A DNA stretch of 64,000 nt from an uncultured Lachnospiraceae bacterium (GCA_947564645.1 CANOCU010000003.1:3934-67933), one strand, 5' to 3'. Shown: positions 45,879 to 52,647, numbered from the stretch's first letter. The notes: generated from the letters alone by a model not told the origin. Program-made: numbers and translations.

Positions 45879-46925
45879 TCAGATGCCTTTCTCAATCATT
45901 ACTTTATTTGTGAAAATCTCTTTATCCTGCATGGCCGCCAGCCCCTCCCCCAGCTTCTCAAAGGAGTACCTCTGCGTGATCTGTCCTGAGGGTCGTATCC
46001 TGCCTGTTCGTATCGCTTCGATCACAATATGCCAGTCATCATCCGCTTCTTTGGTAAAAGATGAATTCCACATGCCACGAAGTGTAAGCTGCCGACGCAG
46101 TACCTTCCAGTATATCTGTTTATCCAACTCAATATCCCCCGCCGGATTCCCCACCAGCACTACCTGTCCACCGGCCTTGGCCGAGCTGACAGCATTGCTT
46201 ATACTTTCCACCAGTCCAACACATTCAAAGATAAGATCTACCCCTTCTGCTCCTGTCTGTTCCATGATATAACCGACCGGATCCTTGTCCCTGCAGTTGC
46301 AAAATACACACTTGGCCAATCCGGTGACCAAATCCCTCTGCTCTTTTCTGGTTCCCACCGCAAAGATCTGCGAAATCCCCATGGAAGCCAGCCATTGTAT
46401 GATCAGCGTACCAATCGTCCCACAACCATAGACTGCCACACTCTTAATATCCGTCAGATCCACCTGTCTGATCGCATGTCTGGCGACACAGGCAGGTTCC
46501 AGCATTGCGGCATCCTCGAAGCTGACTTCGGGTGGCAGCTCGATCAGATTCCAGACCGGAACCGCCACATATTCGGCAAAGCCGCCGTCTGTCCTGGATC
46601 CCAGATAATTATAAGACCGGCACATCTCATACGCCTTTGCCTTACATGACTCACACTTCATACAGGGAATCAGCGGAAATACACCAACTCTTTTTCCAAG
46701 CAGCGCTCCATGCGCTTCCGACCCGACTTCCCGTACGATCCCGGCAAATTCATGTCCGGGCACCGTCGGAAAATGATAGGTTCCGGTCTCAAAAATACGC
46801 GGAATGTCAGAACCGCAGATTCCGACATTGACCACCTCTATAAGCGCCTCGTCCTCATGAATCTGCGGTACCTGAATATCCTTATATGCCAGTTGTCCCA
46901 CTGCTTCCAATACATAAGCTTTCAT
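45879..46925 (-). CDS. Zn-dependent sugar-alcohol-phosphate dehydrogenase (galactitol-1-P DH-like)
   Basis: GICGSD, GHEFAG, structural Zn motif CMKCESC...C, LEPAC, YGCGTIG. Confidence 0.85.
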   Translation of the reverse strand: MKAYVLEAVGQLAYKDIQVPQIHEDEALIEVVNVGICGSDIPRIFETGTYHFPTVPGHEFAGIVREVGSEAHGALLGKRVGVFPLIPCMKCESCKAKAYEMCRSYNYLGSRTDGGFAEYVAVPVWNLIELPPEVSFEDAAMLEPACVARHAIRQVDLTDIKSVAVYGCGTIGTLIIQWLASMGISQIFAVGTRKEQRDLVTGLAKCVFCNCRDKDPVGYIMEQTGAEGVDLIFECVGLVESISNAVSSAKAGGQVVLVGNPAGDIELDKQIYWKVLRRQLTLRGMWNSSFTKEADDDWHIVIEAIRTGRIRPSGQITQRYSFEKLGEGLAAMQDKEIFTNKVMIEKGI

Positions 46926-46949
46926 AGCTGTCCTCTTATATTCATTGTA

Positions 46950-47636
46950 TTAGCCTCTGATCCACAATTTGCAGCGCTCCAGATCAAGCGGTGTGGTAAC
47001 CTTGAAATTCTGCTCATCTCCCGGAATCATGGCAATGTCCATTCCTGCCATGACTGCCGGTTCCGTAGAGCCATTGATCTTCTCAATAATATCCGGATTA
47101 AGCCTTTTATTCGCCCGATAATACTTAATCAGGTGAAATGCCTCCGGCGCCTGCCCCAGATAAACCTTATCCCGTTGCAAAAGGGACGTAACCCGTCTAT
47201 TCTCACCCAAATACACCGTATCCTTCATCTGCAGCACCGGCATCGCTCCCTCATGCTTCGCGCAGGCCGCCACACACGCAGAGATCAGGGATTTCGTGAC
47301 AAACGGCCTTACCGCATCATGAATAATAATAATATCCGACCCGCGCGCAGACGGCATGATAACATCCAACGCATTTATGATCGAATGCTGTCTGCTCGGT
47401 CCGGGCTTCGCAAATCCACTAAATTTCAGTAAAGCTGCCTCCGGCAGCTGCTTGTAGATCTTTTCACGCCACTGCTCGTCGGCAACAATCTGAATCGCAT
47501 CAATCTTCGGATGAGTACTGACTGCCTCCAGACAATGAGTAATGATCATCTTACCTTCTATCGATATGTATTGCTTCGGTATGTCACGCCCCAGGCGTTT
47601 TCCAATTCCCCCTGCCAGTATCAATGCAATGTTCAT
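46950..47636 (-). CDS. IspD/TarI-family cytidylyltransferase
   Basis: LAGGIGKRLG..IPKQY, IHDAVRPF, GQAPEAF, NFKVTTPLDL. Confidence 0.87.
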   Translation of the reverse strand: MNIALILAGGIGKRLGRDIPKQYISIEGKMIITHCLEAVSTHPKIDAIQIVADEQWREKIYKQLPEAALLKFSGFAKPGPSRQHSIINALDVIMPSARGSDIIIIHDAVRPFVTKSLISACVAACAKHEGAMPVLQMKDTVYLGENRRVTSLLQRDKVYLGQAPEAFHLIKYYRANKRLNPDIIEKINGSTEPAVMAGMDIAMIPGDEQNFKVTTPLDLERCKLWIRG

Positions 47637-47661
47637 AGCAGCCTCCCCCTTCGTTCTTCTT

Positions 47662-48345
47662 CTAAAACTTTAGTTTCCTGATATCCGCCAGAATCTCTCC
47701 GTAGGGCTTCTTCTTCCCAAATAGAAGCGTTGTTCCCAACACGAACCCGTCGATTCCCTTGGGAGCATAGGTGGCGATTCGGTCCGCACTGCAGGCGCCA
47801 TCCCAGTAGATCTGAAAGTTCATCTCCTCCTTCAGCGCCAACAGTCTGGTGATCTTCTCCCCGACATACGGCATAAACATCTGCCCCGCATTTCCGGGGT
47901 TTACCGTCATTACCAGAACCTTCTTCACGATCCGCAGCATCTCCATGACCGTCTCCACACTGGTGCCCGGATTGATCGCAATCCCCGGCGTCAGCCCGGC
48001 ATTGATAATCTTCTGCAGGGTTGTGGACGGATGATACTCCGCCTCCGGATGAATATAGATTGTATCCCCCTTACGAAGACGGTCTGTAAAAAGTTCTACC
48101 GTATGATTCGGATGTTCCACCATCAAATGTACATCAAGCGGCTTCTTCGTCGCAGAAGCAATATACGCCATATCATTTAATGACATGGCAAAATTTGGGA
48201 CATATCGTCCGTCCATAATGTCAATATGAAAGGAGTCGATCCCTCCCTTCTCCAAGTCCCGTACTTCCTTTTCCAGATTGCCATAATTAGCACACATCAT
48301 GGATGCCATCAGTTCAAAGCTCATACATCTCCCCTTCGCCTTCAT
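47662..48345 (-). CDS. Ribulose-phosphate 3-epimerase family protein (Rpe/AlsE-like)
   Basis: FHIDIMDGRYVPN, DVHLMV, VLVMTVNPG..GQ, WDG. Confidence 0.85.
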   Translation of the reverse strand: MKAKGRCMSFELMASMMCANYGNLEKEVRDLEKGGIDSFHIDIMDGRYVPNFAMSLNDMAYIASATKKPLDVHLMVEHPNHTVELFTDRLRKGDTIYIHPEAEYHPSTTLQKIINAGLTPGIAINPGTSVETVMEMLRIVKKVLVMTVNPGNAGQMFMPYVGEKITRLLALKEEMNFQIYWDGACSADRIATYAPKGIDGFVLGTTLLFGKKKPYGEILADIRKLKF

Positions 48346-48403
48346 AATTCAAAAAAGCCCGCTACCTAAAATGACCTACCATTAGTATAGCGGACTTTTT
48401 CGC

Positions 48404-48788
48404 TTAAGACAATCTATAACTGTGATAGACGTTACACTTTGTTCGTTTTATTTTCGTAAGCTCTTCTTCCGCCAAAAACAGATTGTACAGGCGTGTTTCA
48501 AAAATGCGGTTCGCCACCTGTATGCTCCCCTCCGTATTTACGATATATCCAAACATGAACGCCAGGCTCACTGCCGGTAAATCCGGATTATATGACACTC
48601 TTTTCCCCTGAAGTCAAATGCCTCGCGGCATTCGCCAAATACTCGTGCAAGCACGGTACTTGGCTCATTGCTCGCGGAAATAAAACTGCCTTAAGCATCT
48701 GTTTCATCTCCGAATATTCTTCTGGCTGGCGAACCATATAATGTTTCTGCGGATAGCATGCCCCTGTGATATTAAACCTACGCTTCAT
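48404..48788 (-). pseudogene. Internally deleted remnant of an AAA-like ATPase gene
   Basis: N-terminal MKRRFNITGACYPQKHYMV joined out of frame to YNPD...MFGYIVN...ANRIFETRLYNLFL; Walker motifs missing. Confidence 0.6.
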
Positions 48789-48905
48789 TTTCGTCCGTCC
48801 TTTTTGAATATTCCGTAAATCTATCGCCTGACTGTCGTTATTTATCTATTGTAGTCGATGAACAGCCGAAATACAATACAGAAATTTATAAGCGGACCTA
48901 CATCA

Positions 48906-50462
48906 TTATTGTTCCACTTTCGCAATGCCAAGCGACTCCAATATTCGCTGACAACTCTGATCATCTTGATACTTATGCATTTTCTCCCTTAACCTTCTTC
49001 TTTTATCCGCCATAATATCACACTGTCCTGCCGTCTCCTCTACAAAAGCACACACATCCTCAAATGTAAATATCTCCCTGCCCGGAAGCCAGTCCCTGAT
49101 ATTGTCAAAAACAAATCCCCGACTCTGCTCATATTCCTCTACATCTTCCAGCATAAAAGCGATTGGCCTGTCCAGAAGCATATAATCCACTGCCGCTGAG
49201 GAATAATCACTAATCAAGGCATCTGCCCAGCCAAGCAGGCGGTTGACCGGAATATCGTATTGAAAAAGGTCTTCATTTTCAAGCAAAAGGATATTACTGC
49301 AATCTTCACAATGCACCGTCTCCCTGTTCTGAAAGGGATGGAGCTTTATTAGCAACAGGATATCCTGCTCCCGTAAAATTGTATTCAACCACCTCATTTT
49401 CTCACGCGTGCTGACAACCGGCAGTCCAGTTTCCGATTCCAGCTCGTATTCATTCAGCTGTGCCAGTTTCTGCTCCGTAGAACGGAACGTCGGCAGCCAG
49501 AATAGGTACTTCTTTGCCGGCGGTATGCGAAGCTTCTGCCTGTCAGCCTCGTCCGGATGAAAAAGCCAGTCCTCCTTCGCATAACCGGTGACCAGGACCT
49601 GATCTGGCCTGAGCCCATAAATATCTGCATGAATATCCGCATATAAGTCACTGATCACCGTCGTGTACTCATAACGCTGCTCACAGCGCACAAAATTCAC
49701 CCGCGTCTTAAATCCGCAGCCATGCCAGAGCTGAACCCTGATCTGATCCTTTCTGCAGTTTCTGGCAAAGCCATAGGCATCCGTAAAAAATAGATACCTT
49801 GCAAGGCACAATGCCCGATAATAGGCATCTCTTTCTCCCTGCTTCTCAGAGACCGACCAGTCAAATGACAAGAATCTCACGTTCTCCACGGCACTGTATC
49901 TGTCAAATTCTGCCGGATCCTTGACAAACCACACCAGTTCATAGCTGTGATTAAGGCCCTCTGCAAGCGCATATTCAAACAGCGCCCTCGCATTATCCGC
50001 AAAGTCCATTCCCTTCACATAAGAGCCTGCATGCGGACCGCTGCGAAAGATGATCAGATTCTCCAACGGCCTCTTTTCGTAAATTCTCCGGTAATGCTCT
50101 TCGTATTCAGTCTCCCGATTGACGAAATAATAAATGTCCGCATCTAAGGTCCAGGCACTCTCATCCATAATTGCCGTAATCTTCTGAAATGCCTCCCGGT
50201 AGTAATCGCTGGTGATCACGATCACAGCCCGATCCTGGAAAGCCTGCCGTATGTCTATGATATCCCGTACTTCCAATACTCTGCCCCGAAACGTAAAGCA
50301 GCCCTTATTTCTCTCATTGGTGTCCACGATAAAAGAAATAGCATGCAACACATCATACCGGTCACACAACTCGGTCAGATAGGAAACAGACTTTTCGTAG
50401 AGGCAAATCTGTCTGCCTGCTATTGCCGCAATATTTTCCTCCATAAGCTTCCGTAACGTCAT
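48906..50462 (-). CDS. CDP-glycerol/ribitol glycerophosphotransferase family (TagF/TarF-like)
   Basis: VQLWHGCGFK, TGYAKEDWL, WLPTFRS, KLHP, LISDYSSAAVDYMLLDRP. Confidence 0.87.
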   Translation of the reverse strand: MTLRKLMEENIAAIAGRQICLYEKSVSYLTELCDRYDVLHAISFIVDTNERNKGCFTFRGRVLEVRDIIDIRQAFQDRAVIVITSDYYREAFQKITAIMDESAWTLDADIYYFVNRETEYEEHYRRIYEKRPLENLIIFRSGPHAGSYVKGMDFADNARALFEYALAEGLNHSYELVWFVKDPAEFDRYSAVENVRFLSFDWSVSEKQGERDAYYRALCLARYLFFTDAYGFARNCRKDQIRVQLWHGCGFKTRVNFVRCEQRYEYTTVISDLYADIHADIYGLRPDQVLVTGYAKEDWLFHPDEADRQKLRIPPAKKYLFWLPTFRSTEQKLAQLNEYELESETGLPVVSTREKMRWLNTILREQDILLLIKLHPFQNRETVHCEDCSNILLLENEDLFQYDIPVNRLLGWADALISDYSSAAVDYMLLDRPIAFMLEDVEEYEQSRGFVFDNIRDWLPGREIFTFEDVCAFVEETAGQCDIMADKRRRLREKMHKYQDDQSCQRILESLGIAKVEQ

Positions 50463-50463
50463 A

Positions 50464-51402
50464 TCAAAAACTCCCTGCTATATCATTTACGTAGATCTCA
50501 TTCTCTTTTGTTTTCGTCAGAAGCTTATACCCTCTTTGCGTAAGCAATTTCTCAATTCTGCTGCCTGCAGAAGTCTCCACGCAGATCAAATCGATCGGAT
50601 ATTTTACATGATCAAGACGACACAACAGGTTATAGTCCATTCCCTCCGTATCCAAATCCAATACATTGGGATAAGTCTCAAAATTCTCGGCAATGATCGC
50701 ATTAATGTCTTTCGTCGCTATCATTCTGACATTATGGTTCATCCCCCGCTTCTGCGCCACCTCTTCCGAGAAGGTATTCAGTCCCGGATGAAGCGGGTCA
50801 TAATAATAAGCCAACTCACCCGCACCTTCCCGGGGTAAGGCCCCCAAATTTACGACCTTGTTAAGCGGTCTGTATTCCTGTGCCAGCTCACACATCTGCA
50901 TATTTGGCTCCACCAGGATCCCGTTATGAAAACCATCCTCATAGAAAAGATAAGTATTGTTCCTAACCACCGGATGGCAGACACCGATATCCATATAGGA
51001 AAACTCCTTATATCTTTCCTTCATATAAGCAAGCATGATCAGGTCTTCTCGATCTGCGGCATAAGAAGATGCCCTGCCTTCAGCGTCAAGAAGCCGTGCC
51101 ACGATCGTGTCTGCCCCCGGCAGAAGCGCTTCCACCTGCCGCAGAATCTCCGTCTCGATATTAGGATAAATAACGATCAGCACAGAGTCTTGATTATGAT
51201 ACTGTCTGATCGCGTCAACTCCCTGCACGACTATCCCGTTTATGATCTTACCGACATTCCTGCCCTCTCCGTCTATCATATGGTCAAACTGATAAGTGGT
51301 GTGCTCATAAAATTTGCTAAATTCTACACCTGCTCCCCATCCGATCACAGTCTTGTATTGTTTTCGTAATCGTTTATAATCCTGTTTCTCTTTCAATCTC
51401 AT
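50464..51402 (-). CDS. FkbM-family methyltransferase with N-terminal Rossmann-like module
   Basis: YMDIGVCHP..NNTY, VEPN, LDLDTEGMD, ICVE. Confidence 0.78.
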   Translation of the reverse strand: MRLKEKQDYKRLRKQYKTVIGWGAGVEFSKFYEHTTYQFDHMIDGEGRNVGKIINGIVVQGVDAIRQYHNQDSVLIVIYPNIETEILRQVEALLPGADTIVARLLDAEGRASSYAADREDLIMLAYMKERYKEFSYMDIGVCHPVVRNNTYLFYEDGFHNGILVEPNMQMCELAQEYRPLNKVVNLGALPREGAGELAYYYDPLHPGLNTFSEEVAQKRGMNHNVRMIATKDINAIIAENFETYPNVLDLDTEGMDYNLLCRLDHVKYPIDLICVETSAGSRIEKLLTQRGYKLLTKTKENEIYVNDIAGSF

Positions 51403-51595
51403 AAACTGCTCCCTGGCTGACCCCTGCGACTCTCTCGTCCAAAAGTGTTTCCCAATACCGCAGATGATCCCTCATCTGACATTTTGGACAGATATCATCA
51501 TGCGCCTGCCTGCCCATACACTCCAACCGGTCTCTGTACCGATCTAAGAGCACTATCTTCCCTGCCATATCCGAAATAAAAATGTCTAAGTTCAC
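51374..51595 (-). CDS. Hypothetical 73-aa protein or gene fragment
   Basis: GTG start with AGGA RBS just outside the IS end; CPKC motif; overlaps the next gene. Confidence 0.35.
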   Translation of the reverse strand: MNLDIFISDMAGKIVLLDRYRDRLECMGRQAHDDICPKCQMRDHLRYWETLLDERVAGVSQGAVYEIERETGL

Positions 51596-51626
51596 AAATT
51601 CCTACTTAACATTTTACAAACTATTT

Positions 51627-52613
51627 GGTGTTAGTCAGAAAATAGGGTGATAAACAATTTCTGGCTAAATTAATAGTAATCCTGCTGTCTTTACATCCCG
51701 GCAGGAAAGTGTTCGTCTGATCCCACTCACTGTTAAGAGCGATGATATGATCCGATCCGCCGAAGTCTTTCTGCTGTGCATTCATATACAGCACTGAACA
51801 ATGCATTATACCTGTTCAAATAATTTATGGAAATCCCACGGTAAAATTCAAACTTCTTTCGTGACATCTTTTACAATACAGCTCTCTGTTGCTTCCGGAG
51901 TTTTATAGCTTTTGAGTCCATCACACAGAACAAGCATGTTTTCAGATATGCAGCCGCTAAAGACTTTCTGCAATTCCTGCGATATAGGTTTGTCACGGTT
52001 TACTGTTCCCGCTATCTACGCCGCCTTTACGCTATACACCAGAACAAATGCAGACGTATACGTTAAAAATCCCTCTTTTTCTGCTTTTGCACCATGTTTG
52101 CGGAGTTTATATCAAACAGAATCAGGAAGCTTCTTTCCTTTATAGGACTCCGAAACATAAGTCTCATCCATCTCAGAAACATCCTGCAAGCATGACCACT
52201 GCTCTTCCAACAGATCTGCAAAGGTGATCAGAAATTTTTGCCGTATATGAAATACAAGGTCATGAGGCAGACCAAGTCTTTTTGCAGTAAAGTCAACGGT
52301 ATCCCCGGAAAAGGAACCATCTATGACCGCTTCCCAGATCTCGCGCGACTAGCGGGAATTGGCCATCAGGGTATTTGTCGTGAAAACAAAAGTTTTCTCA
52401 CAATCTTTACAGCGGTATACCTGTTTGTCGCATTTATGGCCATTGCGGACGATTGCTTCTTCCGAAAGCTTTGCTATAATGTTGGTTGGTTTTGTTCAAG
52501 TTTCAACTGCCATATATGAACTATCTCCCTGTACGTAATACCCCATGATAGCACTTTATTTTTCTTTTAAAATGGACTTATAGAGCTTATCACCACATTT
52601 TCTGACTAACACC
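51627..52613 (-). mobile_element. IS1595-family insertion sequence with decayed transposase
   Basis: 27-bp TIRs GGTGTTAGTCAGAAAAT(AG/GT)GGTGATAA (2 mismatches); perfect 8-bp TSD AACTATTT at 51619-26 and 52614-21; transposase remnant from ATG 52513 with Zn ribbon RNGH...YRCKDCEKTF, EMDETY, LCDGLKSY, YRGISINYLNRY and several stops or frameshifts. Confidence 0.9.
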
Positions 52614-52647
52614 AACTATTTTGATCCGTCCTCTATTTTGTCTTTAA

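Follow-up and report, generated by a model that had tools for sequence, protein, structure and literature searches.

A putative CDP-alditol supply cassette with an AlsE-type epimerase in a surface-glycan locus of an uncultured Lachnospiraceae bacterium

In an uncultured Lachnospiraceae bacterium, a large locus for surface glycans ends in four genes, which raise the question of which alditol phosphate they might provide. In the window, that is, the whole stretch of 64,000 nucleotides that was analyzed, the initial annotation had placed an epimerase (EPI), a zinc-dependent dehydrogenase (DH), a cytidylyltransferase (CT) and a TagF-like transferase. All four genes were confirmed where it had put them, on the minus strand (Table 1). 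Very probably, they make up a supply line in which a CDP-alditol is passed to a phosphotransferase.

Table 1. Coordinates of the genes and of the gene remnant in the window.
Feature	Position	Strand	Remarks
DH, zinc MDR reductase	45879..46925	(-)	348 aa; ADH_N + ADH_zinc_N
CT, IspD/TarI-family cytidylyltransferase	46950..47636	(-)	228 aa; PF01128, 125 bits
EPI, AlsE-type Rpe-family ketose-phosphate 3-epimerase	47662..48324	(-)	PF00834, 165 bits
Decayed remnant of inserted 532-aa gene	48345..48905	(-)	blastx against the intact gene in L050
TagF-like CDP-alditol phosphotransferase	48906..50462	(-)	518 aa; PF04464, 171 bits
FkbM-like protein	50464..51402	(-)	weak FkbM domain match

The glycan locus to which the block belongs exceeds 35 kb and ends, on its 3' side, with these genes; it also holds GT4, GT2, FkbM, DegT and deoxy-sugar genes. 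EPI, CT and DH are tightly packed, with intergenic gaps of 24-25 bp. The EPI open reading frame spans 47662-48345 in the window, and its true start is probably at 48324, giving a protein of 220 residues, as the same start is found in more than 100 homologues. The PF04464 match of the TagF-like protein is nearly full length (profile positions 21-364 of 367); its scores with the TarF, TarL and TarB models (66, 66 and 37 bits, respectively) are far below the equivalog cut-offs. Orthologues of this protein, 55-77% identical, are encoded upstream of EPI in nine related loci, mostly directly before it. Only 1 bp separates the TagF-like gene from the FkbM-like gene upstream of it; the two are co-conserved, and orthologues of the FkbM-like gene (62-66% identical) precede TagF in loci L050, L052 and L053.

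The TagF-like gene and EPI are 560 bp apart. The sequence between them is what remains of a 532-aa gene, still intact at the corresponding position of L050, the closest relative. In a blastx comparison with the intact product, the remnant aligned over residues 2-32 and 328-382 alone, with 85% identity over the second segment. Judging by its N-terminal sequence, the 532-aa protein would belong to the AAA-ATPase-like family seen in a neighbouring gene cluster. The related loci L051, L052, L071 and L099 carry a different gene cluster (PF09820 and PF08011). Just before EPI, at about 48395-48351, a hairpin (GTCCGCTA...TAGCGGGC) is followed by T6; it was not called a terminator in the scan because its loop is 23 nt long.

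EPI scored below both equivalog cut-offs of its family, for Rpe (TIGR01163, 171.7 versus 212.6) as well as for AlsE (NF007266, 148 versus 271). Its motifs were read by aligning it to Rpe and AlsE of E. coli, to six Rpe proteins of Lachnospiraceae and to five paralogues from Listeria. EPI resembles E. coli AlsE and differs from Rpe in its motifs SMMC, PGNAGQ and DGAC and in GTTLLF, a loop of six residues. All four AlsE-type features are thus present (SxMC, PGxAGQ, DG[ASN] and a beta8 loop that exceeds that of Rpe by one residue), the beta6 and beta7 phosphate loops being altered beside the longer beta8 loop, whereas every canonical Rpe examined carries SILSAD, PGFGGQ, DGG and GSA(I/V)F or close variants. 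In these alignments, the three phosphate-binding loops of EPI, located at sites known from Rpe-family structures, are of the AlsE type and not of the Rpe type. The metal and acid/base residues are conserved (H33, D35, H66 and D175). The structure model (pLDDT 92.6) is an Rpe-fold barrel, and a fold search with this model did not separate AlsE (Z 29.0) from the RPEs (Z 29.4-30.3).

In the phylogeny of the epimerase against Rpe and AlsE, proposed as a check in the initial annotation, EPI fell outside the canonical Rpe clade (clade support 100/99) and did not group specifically with E. coli AlsE, which formed a separate long branch. With the latter enzyme (PDB 3CT7), EPI shares SxMC, PGxAGQ, DG[SA]C and the longer beta8 loop; the two proteins are only about 30% identical. 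The sister sequences of EPI, its nearest relatives outside the cassette, have surroundings which resemble als operons: in L045 the neighbours are a ROK kinase, a sugar ABC binding protein and a LacI regulator, and in L046 the neighbour is RpiB. The context of EPI itself differs from the als operon in being biosynthetic, and its reaction would presumably be the conversion of fructose-6-phosphate to allulose-6-phosphate. The earlier label of an Rpe/AlsE-like protein is correct, and the loops and these als-like neighbourhoods strengthen the idea of an AlsE-like enzyme. At two loci out of 100 (among them L042), a PMI-like cupin gene lies next to EPI.

According to Chan et al., in a study of 2008, the longer beta8 loop of AlsE reportedly makes room for the phosphate of a hexulose-6-phosphate; the same authors are said to have found AlsE and Rpe mutually promiscuous. 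The reading that we favour, as an evenly balanced judgement drawn from these loops and the gene context, is that the alditol may be a hexitol derived from fructose-6-phosphate via allulose-6-phosphate. Counting against it are this promiscuity, the absence of a specific grouping with E. coli AlsE in the tree and the equal fold match of EPI to AlsE and the RPEs. Its main rival, rather unlikely in our estimate, is plain CDP-ribitol: EPI would act as a dedicated ribulose-5-phosphate (Ru5P)/xylulose-5-phosphate (Xu5P) epimerase and DH as a TarJ analogue on Ru5P, CT would form CDP-ribitol, and the TagF-like enzyme would add ribitol-phosphate. In favour of this rival, ribitol phosphate is second in frequency only to glycerol phosphate and far more common than any other alditol phosphate. 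A canonical housekeeping Rpe, separate from EPI, is nevertheless encoded in this genome and in all five relatives checked, so that interconversion of Ru5P and Xu5P is already provided for. Moreover, we know of no TarIJ locus that needs an epimerase.

The Listeria polyol operons bear on the same point. Two Listeria clusters in which AlsE-type paralogues adjoin RpiB match, in gene order, operons annotated as pentitol operons, so that an AlsE-type epimerase need not mean a hexulose. A Listeria operon read as a pentitol operon holds Rpe-type and AlsE-type epimerases, RpiB and a transketolase. It exemplifies the extra pentose-phosphate-pathway paralogues that are frequent in Firmicute polyol operons, in line with the ribitol reading. 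The gene lmo0735 encodes the epimerase of a Listeria D-allose cassette (PMC5893763). The Listeria record examined apparently contains no D-allose cassette of this type, as only five PF00834 genes were found in it and none was so arranged.

For the dehydrogenase, GatD was the best relative both among the NCBIfam models (215 bits versus a cut-off of 550) and in the PDB (4a2c, 185 bits), which upholds the earlier description of DH as galactitol-1-phosphate-dehydrogenase-like. ESM Atlas returned only generic GatD or iditol-dehydrogenase names for this protein. DH is 30.9% identical to E. coli GatD and 33.7% identical to the lmo2664-like DH of Listeria, with scores of 183-200 bits; its alignment with the Listeria TarJ candidate yielded 24.7% identity and 39 bits. 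The Listeria TarJ and TarI were assigned by position, the TarJ candidate adjoining a TarI-like gene (PF01128, 152 bits) on a Listeria chromosome filed as a plasmid record. In the tree, this candidate lay on a very long separate branch. When the PDB was searched by sequence with DH and with GatD, no chain named ribulose-5-phosphate reductase appeared among the best 60. On this evidence, DH is assigned to the polyol-phosphate dehydrogenase (GatD-like) group, and it is not a TarJ orthologue, which weighs against CDP-ribitol. The analogy with TarJ/TarI drawn in the initial annotation does not hold by descent.

The catalytic and structural zinc motifs are present in DH, and so is the GSRxDGG loop; both are shared with GatD. 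The loop is absent from the three Listeria dehydrogenases of operons read as pentitol operons, a point for the hexitol reading. The overall resemblance to GatD was also considered as an argument for a hexitol and rejected: the lmo2664-like DH, whose operon is read as a pentitol operon from gene order, is as close to DH as GatD is, so that GatD-likeness is no pointer to a hexitol. The identity of 33.7% with this Listeria enzyme counts in favour of ribitol. In 200 Lachnospiraceae genomes, GatZ-like genes adjoin DH-like genes, and the 1.5 kb to each side of them contained no CT; these pairs are therefore taken as ordinary tagatose catabolism. The identity between DH and its relatives next to GatZ is only 30-35%.

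At the cofactor position, where NAD-type relatives carry Asp, DH reads Gly-Thr-Arg-Lys. The replacement of Asp by G-[TN]-[RK] was observed in all the cassette dehydrogenases (54/54), whereas Asp is kept in the NAD-using relatives, namely GatD, the lmo2664-like and lmo0506-like DHs, and the proteins of L144 and L146. The Listeria TarJ candidate likewise has G-K at this position. A glycine followed by a basic residue is an NADP(H)-type signature in sequence terms, and it fits a biosynthetic, NADPH-dependent reductase.

CT also remained under the cut-offs of both models to which it might belong, IspD (TIGR00453, 160 bits versus 181) and ribitol-5-phosphate cytidylyltransferase (NF001183, 135.1 bits versus 166). 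Its best PDB matches are of the TarI type (3f1c, 4jis, 2vsh and 6xhp), the Thermotoga IspD (1vpa) ranking second; its identity with Listeria TarI is 28%, that with the IspD of its own genome 27%. That TarI enzymes are its best solved relatives and stand slightly closer to it than IspD is in keeping with CDP-ribitol. A separate housekeeping IspD (196 bits) is encoded on another contig, C25, and CT is thus not the sole IspD-family copy in the genome.

Relatives of EPI were found in at least 562 species-level genomes. The full EPI-CT-DH trio is present in 15 of 20 related loci and in 47 of the closest 80, from many genera of Lachnospiraceae, and it lies in glycan operons of dozens of genera beside TagF, LicD, DUF4422 and GT genes. 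Upstream of EPI, mostly immediately before it, nine loci carry TagF-like genes and two carry four tandem LicD genes. CT-DH also occurs beside epimerases of a second lineage; these are separate from EPI in the tree, share only 29-37% identity with it and are again of the AlsE type. Both lineages paired with CT-DH are thus AlsE-type and none is Rpe-type, an argument against ribitol. On the other hand, the NAD-type relatives of DH and the catabolic relatives of the second lineage adjoin FGGY kinases, whose size we take to be typical of pentulose kinases, and this agrees better with ribitol.

That the genes are catabolic or belong to the MEP pathway, and merely adjoin a glycan locus, is very improbable indeed. 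The Rpe/AlsE, GatD-like MDR and IspD families do include catabolic or isoprenoid members. However, no transporter, kinase or regulator adjoins EPI-CT-DH at this locus, the genome has its own IspD and Rpe elsewhere, the cassette dehydrogenases carry the NADP signature where their catabolic relatives keep Asp, and the trio recurs within glycan operons of many genera. The earlier proposal of a biosynthetic CDP-alditol module with a dedicated 3-epimerase and a GatD-like reductase, neither catabolic nor MEP-related, is supported by the same observations.

Among the closest known systems is CDP-ribitol synthesis by TarI/TarJ, together with TarK/TarL (S. aureus, S. pneumoniae, B. subtilis W23 and Listeria), in which an MDR zinc reductase and an IspD-family cytidylyltransferase likewise serve a PF04464 phosphotransferase. 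The NADPH-type signature of the reductase is shared, and reduction before activation is likely here too. The cassette differs in that DH belongs to the GatD group, CT falls under the TarI cut-off, and an AlsE-type epimerase is integral to the cassette. The chemistry of E. coli GatD (galactitol-1-phosphate 5-dehydrogenase), a ketohexose-6-phosphate/hexitol-phosphate redox reaction at C2, is that proposed for DH; GatD differs from the cassette enzymes in its NAD-binding Asp and in its catabolic role.

CDP-hexitols derived from fructose-6-phosphate for a surface glycan are already known: CDP-6-D-glucitol, made by HS5.18/HS5.17 of C. jejuni, and CDP-D-mannitol, made by pneumococcal Mnp1/Mnp2 (PMC10918830). 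In both, fructose-6-phosphate is activated first and the CDP-ketose is then reduced by an SDR of PF01370 (PMC10918830). The present cassette shares with them a PF01128 cytidylyltransferase, but has an MDR reductase (PF08240/PF00107) and an epimerase, and those routes have neither.

Another CDP-pentitol is an improbable product. In that case, EPI would convert Ru5P to Xu5P, DH would form D-arabinitol-phosphate or xylitol-5-phosphate, and CDP-arabinitol or CDP-xylitol would result. Listeria relatives of DH are said, from the work of Kentache et al. of 2016, to interconvert pentitol phosphates and xylulose-5-phosphate, and CDP-arabinitol has a precedent in pneumococcus 17F (AbpA/AbpB). In the known CDP-arabinitol route, however, the cytidylyltransferase acts first and is followed by a different, SDR-type reductase. 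Activation first and a different reductase are also features of the CDP-hexitol routes (PMC10918830). Furthermore, Xu5P is a standing intermediate of the pentose phosphate pathway, so that a dedicated epimerase adds little; the argument from the AlsE-type loops applies to this product as well.

In the hexitol reading, the block would be the alditol-phosphate branch of the glycan locus. EPI would make a ketose phosphate otherwise missing from the cell, most likely D-allulose-6-phosphate from fructose-6-phosphate. DH, recruited from catabolic polyol-phosphate dehydrogenases and switched to NADPH, would reduce its C2 keto group to a hexitol-6-phosphate of the allitol or altritol type. CT would then use CTP to form the CDP-hexitol, from which the TagF-like enzyme may move hexitol-phosphate onto the glycan made by the upstream glycosyltransferases. 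In its wider form, which we put forward tentatively and hold slightly less firmly, the activated product would be CDP-allitol or CDP-altritol derived from allulose-6-phosphate, hundreds of gut and rumen Lachnospiraceae species would carry the phosphate of this hexitol on wall glycans or flagellin, and AlsE-type epimerases would have entered such pathways on two or more occasions.

The CDP-alditol pathways of Gram-positive bacteria define their serotypes, as well as receptors for phages and epitopes seen by the immune system. To our knowledge, the characterised routes concern glycerol, ribitol, arabinitol, mannitol and glucitol only. In the literature searched, neither allitol or altritol phosphate nor CDP-allitol is mentioned, which counts against the hexitol reading, and no report of such a nucleotide-activated alditol was found. 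In one review, solved glycans within the Lachnospiraceae are listed only for R. gnavus. The cassette is common in this dominant gut family. Even if its product is ribitol, it would be a second CDP-ribitol route of independent assembly, whose reductase came from among the catabolic polyol-phosphate dehydrogenases. A new hexitol phosphate, if made, would enlarge the set of building blocks known in bacterial glycobiology; AlsE-type epimerases would then have a role in biosynthesis, and a simple genetic marker of a new surface epitope would be at hand.

The three genes that end the minus-strand block encode an Rpe-family epimerase (EPI), an IspD/TarI-like cytidylyltransferase (CT) and a zinc MDR dehydrogenase (DH), separated by gaps of 24-25 bp. 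This cassette would supply a CDP-alditol to the TagF-like phosphotransferase encoded just upstream. Such a supply line, proposed in the initial annotation, is very probable and well supported as a predicted route, the trio being conserved and the DH of the NADP type.

Features of the minus-strand block 45879-51402, in transcription order
Feature	Coordinates	Strand	Remarks
FkbM-like gene	50464-51402	minus	first in transcription order
TagF-like gene	48906-50462	minus	PF04464, 171 bits, nearly full length
Non-coding stretch, 560 bp	48345-48905	minus-strand block	between TagF-like gene and EPI; collapsed gene copy
EPI	47662-48324	minus	PF00834
CT	46950-47636	minus	PF01128
DH	45879-46925	minus	zinc MDR; last in transcription order

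The non-coding stretch derives from a 532-aa gene, an intact copy of which lies at the identical position in the closest relative (L050:7344-8942). Its end, just before EPI, carries a hairpin and a T-run (motif read from the sequence); no terminator was called there by the terminator scan. An AAA-ATPase-like/PDDEXK_9 gene, related-looking to the 532-aa gene, was observed in or beside the cassette in the EPI-related loci L051, L052, L071 and L099, in the last of these between EPI and CT, and genes of these types seem to have been inserted repeatedly into cassette loci.

Upstream of the TagF-EPI-CT-DH block, the glycan locus extends over more than 35 kb, with three GT4 genes, a sugar-binding GT, three GT2 genes, a nucleotidyltransferase, FkbM and SAM methyltransferases, a DegT aminotransferase, a radical SAM enzyme, an NDP-hexose 2,3-dehydratase, a GFO-type oxidoreductase and an IS remnant. 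The G+C content is 35% over 52.6-64 kb, 47-50% in the TagF-EPI-CT-DH block and 53% in the backbone; the locus is therefore mosaic. The region from the FkbM-like gene to the next methyltransferase (51403-52647) has no long ORF, and its short frames, e.g. EMDETYVSESYKGKK, resemble an IS1595/ISXO2-like transposase when read by eye only; it is probably a decayed IS splitting the locus. Past the right end of the window (G000:C3:67000-86999, same assembly), the glycan locus goes on with an NDP-hexose 2,3-dehydratase, a GFO-type oxidoreductase, a radical SAM enzyme, methyltransferases and three GT2 genes. Added to the window's own DegT aminotransferase, this set is consistent with a methylated deoxy-amino sugar branch.

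EPI and CT are paralogues, distinct from the housekeeping enzymes. In the assembly, a Lachnospiraceae genome that is 91% complete, canonical Rpe scored 251 bits with PF00834 versus 165 for EPI, and canonical IspD 196 bits with PF01128 versus 125 for CT; this separate IspD rules against MEP-related genes. All five related genomes checked likewise contained one canonical Rpe and one EPI-type gene each. The housekeeping Rpe was present twice with equal scores (C85:10916-11506 and C94:9676-10266), reflecting either a true duplication or redundant contigs (assembly contamination, 2.95%).

The TarI and TarJ references were taken by position from the Listeria monocytogenes chromosome NZ_CP030101.1 (2.9 Mb, filed in PLSDB as an unnamed plasmid), and the pentitol operon reference was a gene string matching in order the operon annotated as such. 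DH shared 24.7% identity with TarJ (39 bits) versus 33.7% (200 bits) with the lmo2664-like dehydrogenase of the operon read as a pentitol operon, 31.9% (191 bits) with the lmo0506-like one and 30.9% (183 bits) with E. coli GatD, its best solved relative being GatD (185 bits). In the tree, TarJ was a very long outlier and the Lachnospiraceae DHs formed one group, NAD-type catabolic members included. Because identities, scores and tree favour the polyol-phosphate dehydrogenase group over TarJ, DH appears to have been recruited from that group, independently of TarJ. CT was about equidistant from TarI (28% identity) and IspD (24-27%), and scored under the curated cut-offs of both models. TarIJ was thus rejected as the identity of CT-DH: the TarJ/TarI analogy initially drawn fails by descent, and the description of the reductase as GatD-like holds. 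As the group handles pentitol and hexitol phosphates, GatD-likeness alone gives no chain length and was rejected as evidence for a hexitol.

Asp, the NAD signature, closes Rossmann strand beta2 in GatD, in the Listeria DHs (lmo2664-like and lmo0506-like) and in those Lachnospiraceae relatives that lack a CT neighbour (L144a, L144b and L146). In all 54 cassette DHs the position is taken by Gly, followed by Asn/Thr and then Lys/Arg; their zinc ligands and structural zinc site are present. Gly with a basic residue there is a trait of NADP-dependent MDRs, and Listeria TarJ resembles the cassette DHs in having Gly-Lys. By this signature, the cassette DHs would work in the biosynthetic direction, which rules against catabolic genes.

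EPI retains the metal and acid/base residues of its family, and its three phosphate-binding loops and first strand are unlike those of all canonical Rpe proteins examined. Its loops are of the AlsE type, in keeping with its earlier label of Rpe/AlsE-like.

Motifs distinguishing EPI and AlsE from canonical Rpe
Element	EPI	E. coli AlsE	Canonical Rpe
First strand	SMMC	SLMC	SILSAD
beta6 loop	PGNAGQ	PGFAGQ	PGFGGQ
beta7 loop	DGAC	DGSC	DGG
beta8 loop	GTTLLF (six residues)	GTSGLF (six)	GSA(I/V)F (five)

The extra beta8 residue reportedly lengthens the AlsE site for hexulose-6-phosphate, and its deletion is said to shift AlsE towards ribulose-5-phosphate. The alditol would be a hexitol made via allulose-6-phosphate, a reading to which we give about an even chance. 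Against it, E. coli AlsE formed a long separate branch in the trees, and the EPI model (pLDDT 92.6) matched RPEs and AlsE equally well. Canonical Rpe proteins formed a single clade (support 100/99); EPI grouped with two Lachnospiraceae paralogues, one adjoining a LacI regulator, a ROK kinase and a sugar ABC binding protein, the other RpiB. In Listeria, each of two clusters taken for pentitol-type operons (lmo2659-2664-like and lmo0498-0506-like) pairs a single Rpe-type epimerase with a single AlsE-type one, and in both RpiB adjoins the AlsE-type gene. Their coexistence argues that the two types differ in function; the presence of AlsE-type enzymes where the operon annotation is for pentitols speaks against equating this type with hexuloses. 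Ribitol is a possible but clearly less probable product than the hexitol, another pentitol is unlikely, and the remainder falls to other outcomes.

In three genomes without EPI (DH orthologue, 41-45% identity) and one further genome (DH relative, 38%), another Rpe-family gene adjoins CT-DH; it is of the AlsE type and 29-35% identical to EPI. Since this second lineage, which includes two catabolic members (37% identity to EPI), is distinct in the tree, AlsE-type epimerases appear to have joined CT-DH in two separate lineages. No canonical Rpe type was seen beside a CT-DH pair among the loci examined. The catabolic relatives adjoin FGGY kinases, whose size we take to be typical of pentulose kinases, a point on the pentitol side.

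In the known CDP-hexitol routes (to CDP-6-D-glucitol and to CDP-D-mannitol), a PF01128 cytidylyltransferase acts on fructose-6-phosphate, followed by an SDR (PMC10918830); the present cassette is designed differently, with a zinc MDR and an epimerase. Allitol phosphate, altritol phosphate and CDP-allitol found no mention in the literature searched. The Listeria allose cassette, in which growth on D-allose requires lmo0734 to lmo0736 (PMC5893763), is apparently absent from the Listeria chromosome used here (NZ_CP030101.1). Among Lachnospiraceae, glycan structures are solved for R. gnavus only, according to a 2025 review (PMC12413058).

By sequence comparison, the cassette is a distinct, widespread three-enzyme variant, not TarIJ. 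Close homologues of EPI are very numerous (82-97% identity among the matches listed), and among 200 sampled genera of the family, 20 genomes had an orthologue at 69-83% identity. Relatives numbered at least 562 in a scan of species-level genomes; nearly all of the best 80 (identity of 80% or higher) are from Lachnospiraceae of mouse, rabbit, ruminant and human gut. The order EPI-CT-DH was kept in 15 of the 20 loci and in 47 of the best 80; a further 10 had EPI-CT without DH and 17 had EPI without either partner nearby, where EPI usually closes a glycan operon. Median identity was 82% for EPI versus 53% for CT and 49% for DH (L027-L046 and L050-L129, the EPI-related loci), and in the closest relatives 92% versus 63% and 70%; strong constraint on EPI, or recombination swapping the CT-DH part, are possible explanations.

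Directly before EPI in the 80 loci, a DUF4422 protein was commonest (32 cluster members), followed by a protein of about 690 aa without family assignment (17) and, with 9 members, the TagF-like gene. Where TagF-like and LicD proteins are absent, the DUF4422 or 690-aa protein could be the user of the cassette product. Four tandem LicD-family genes immediately precede EPI in two loci (L096 and L116), pointing to multiple transfers of an alditol phosphate or a similar phosphodiester group within one glycan. GT2 and GT4 genes are also among the neighbours of the trio, as are, at several loci, genes for flagellin and chemotaxis; several genomes among L027-L044 have flagellin (4 members), CheB, CheR and MCP genes no more than 5.5 kb from it. 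Flagellin, instead of a wall polymer, may thus carry the alditol phosphate in some species.
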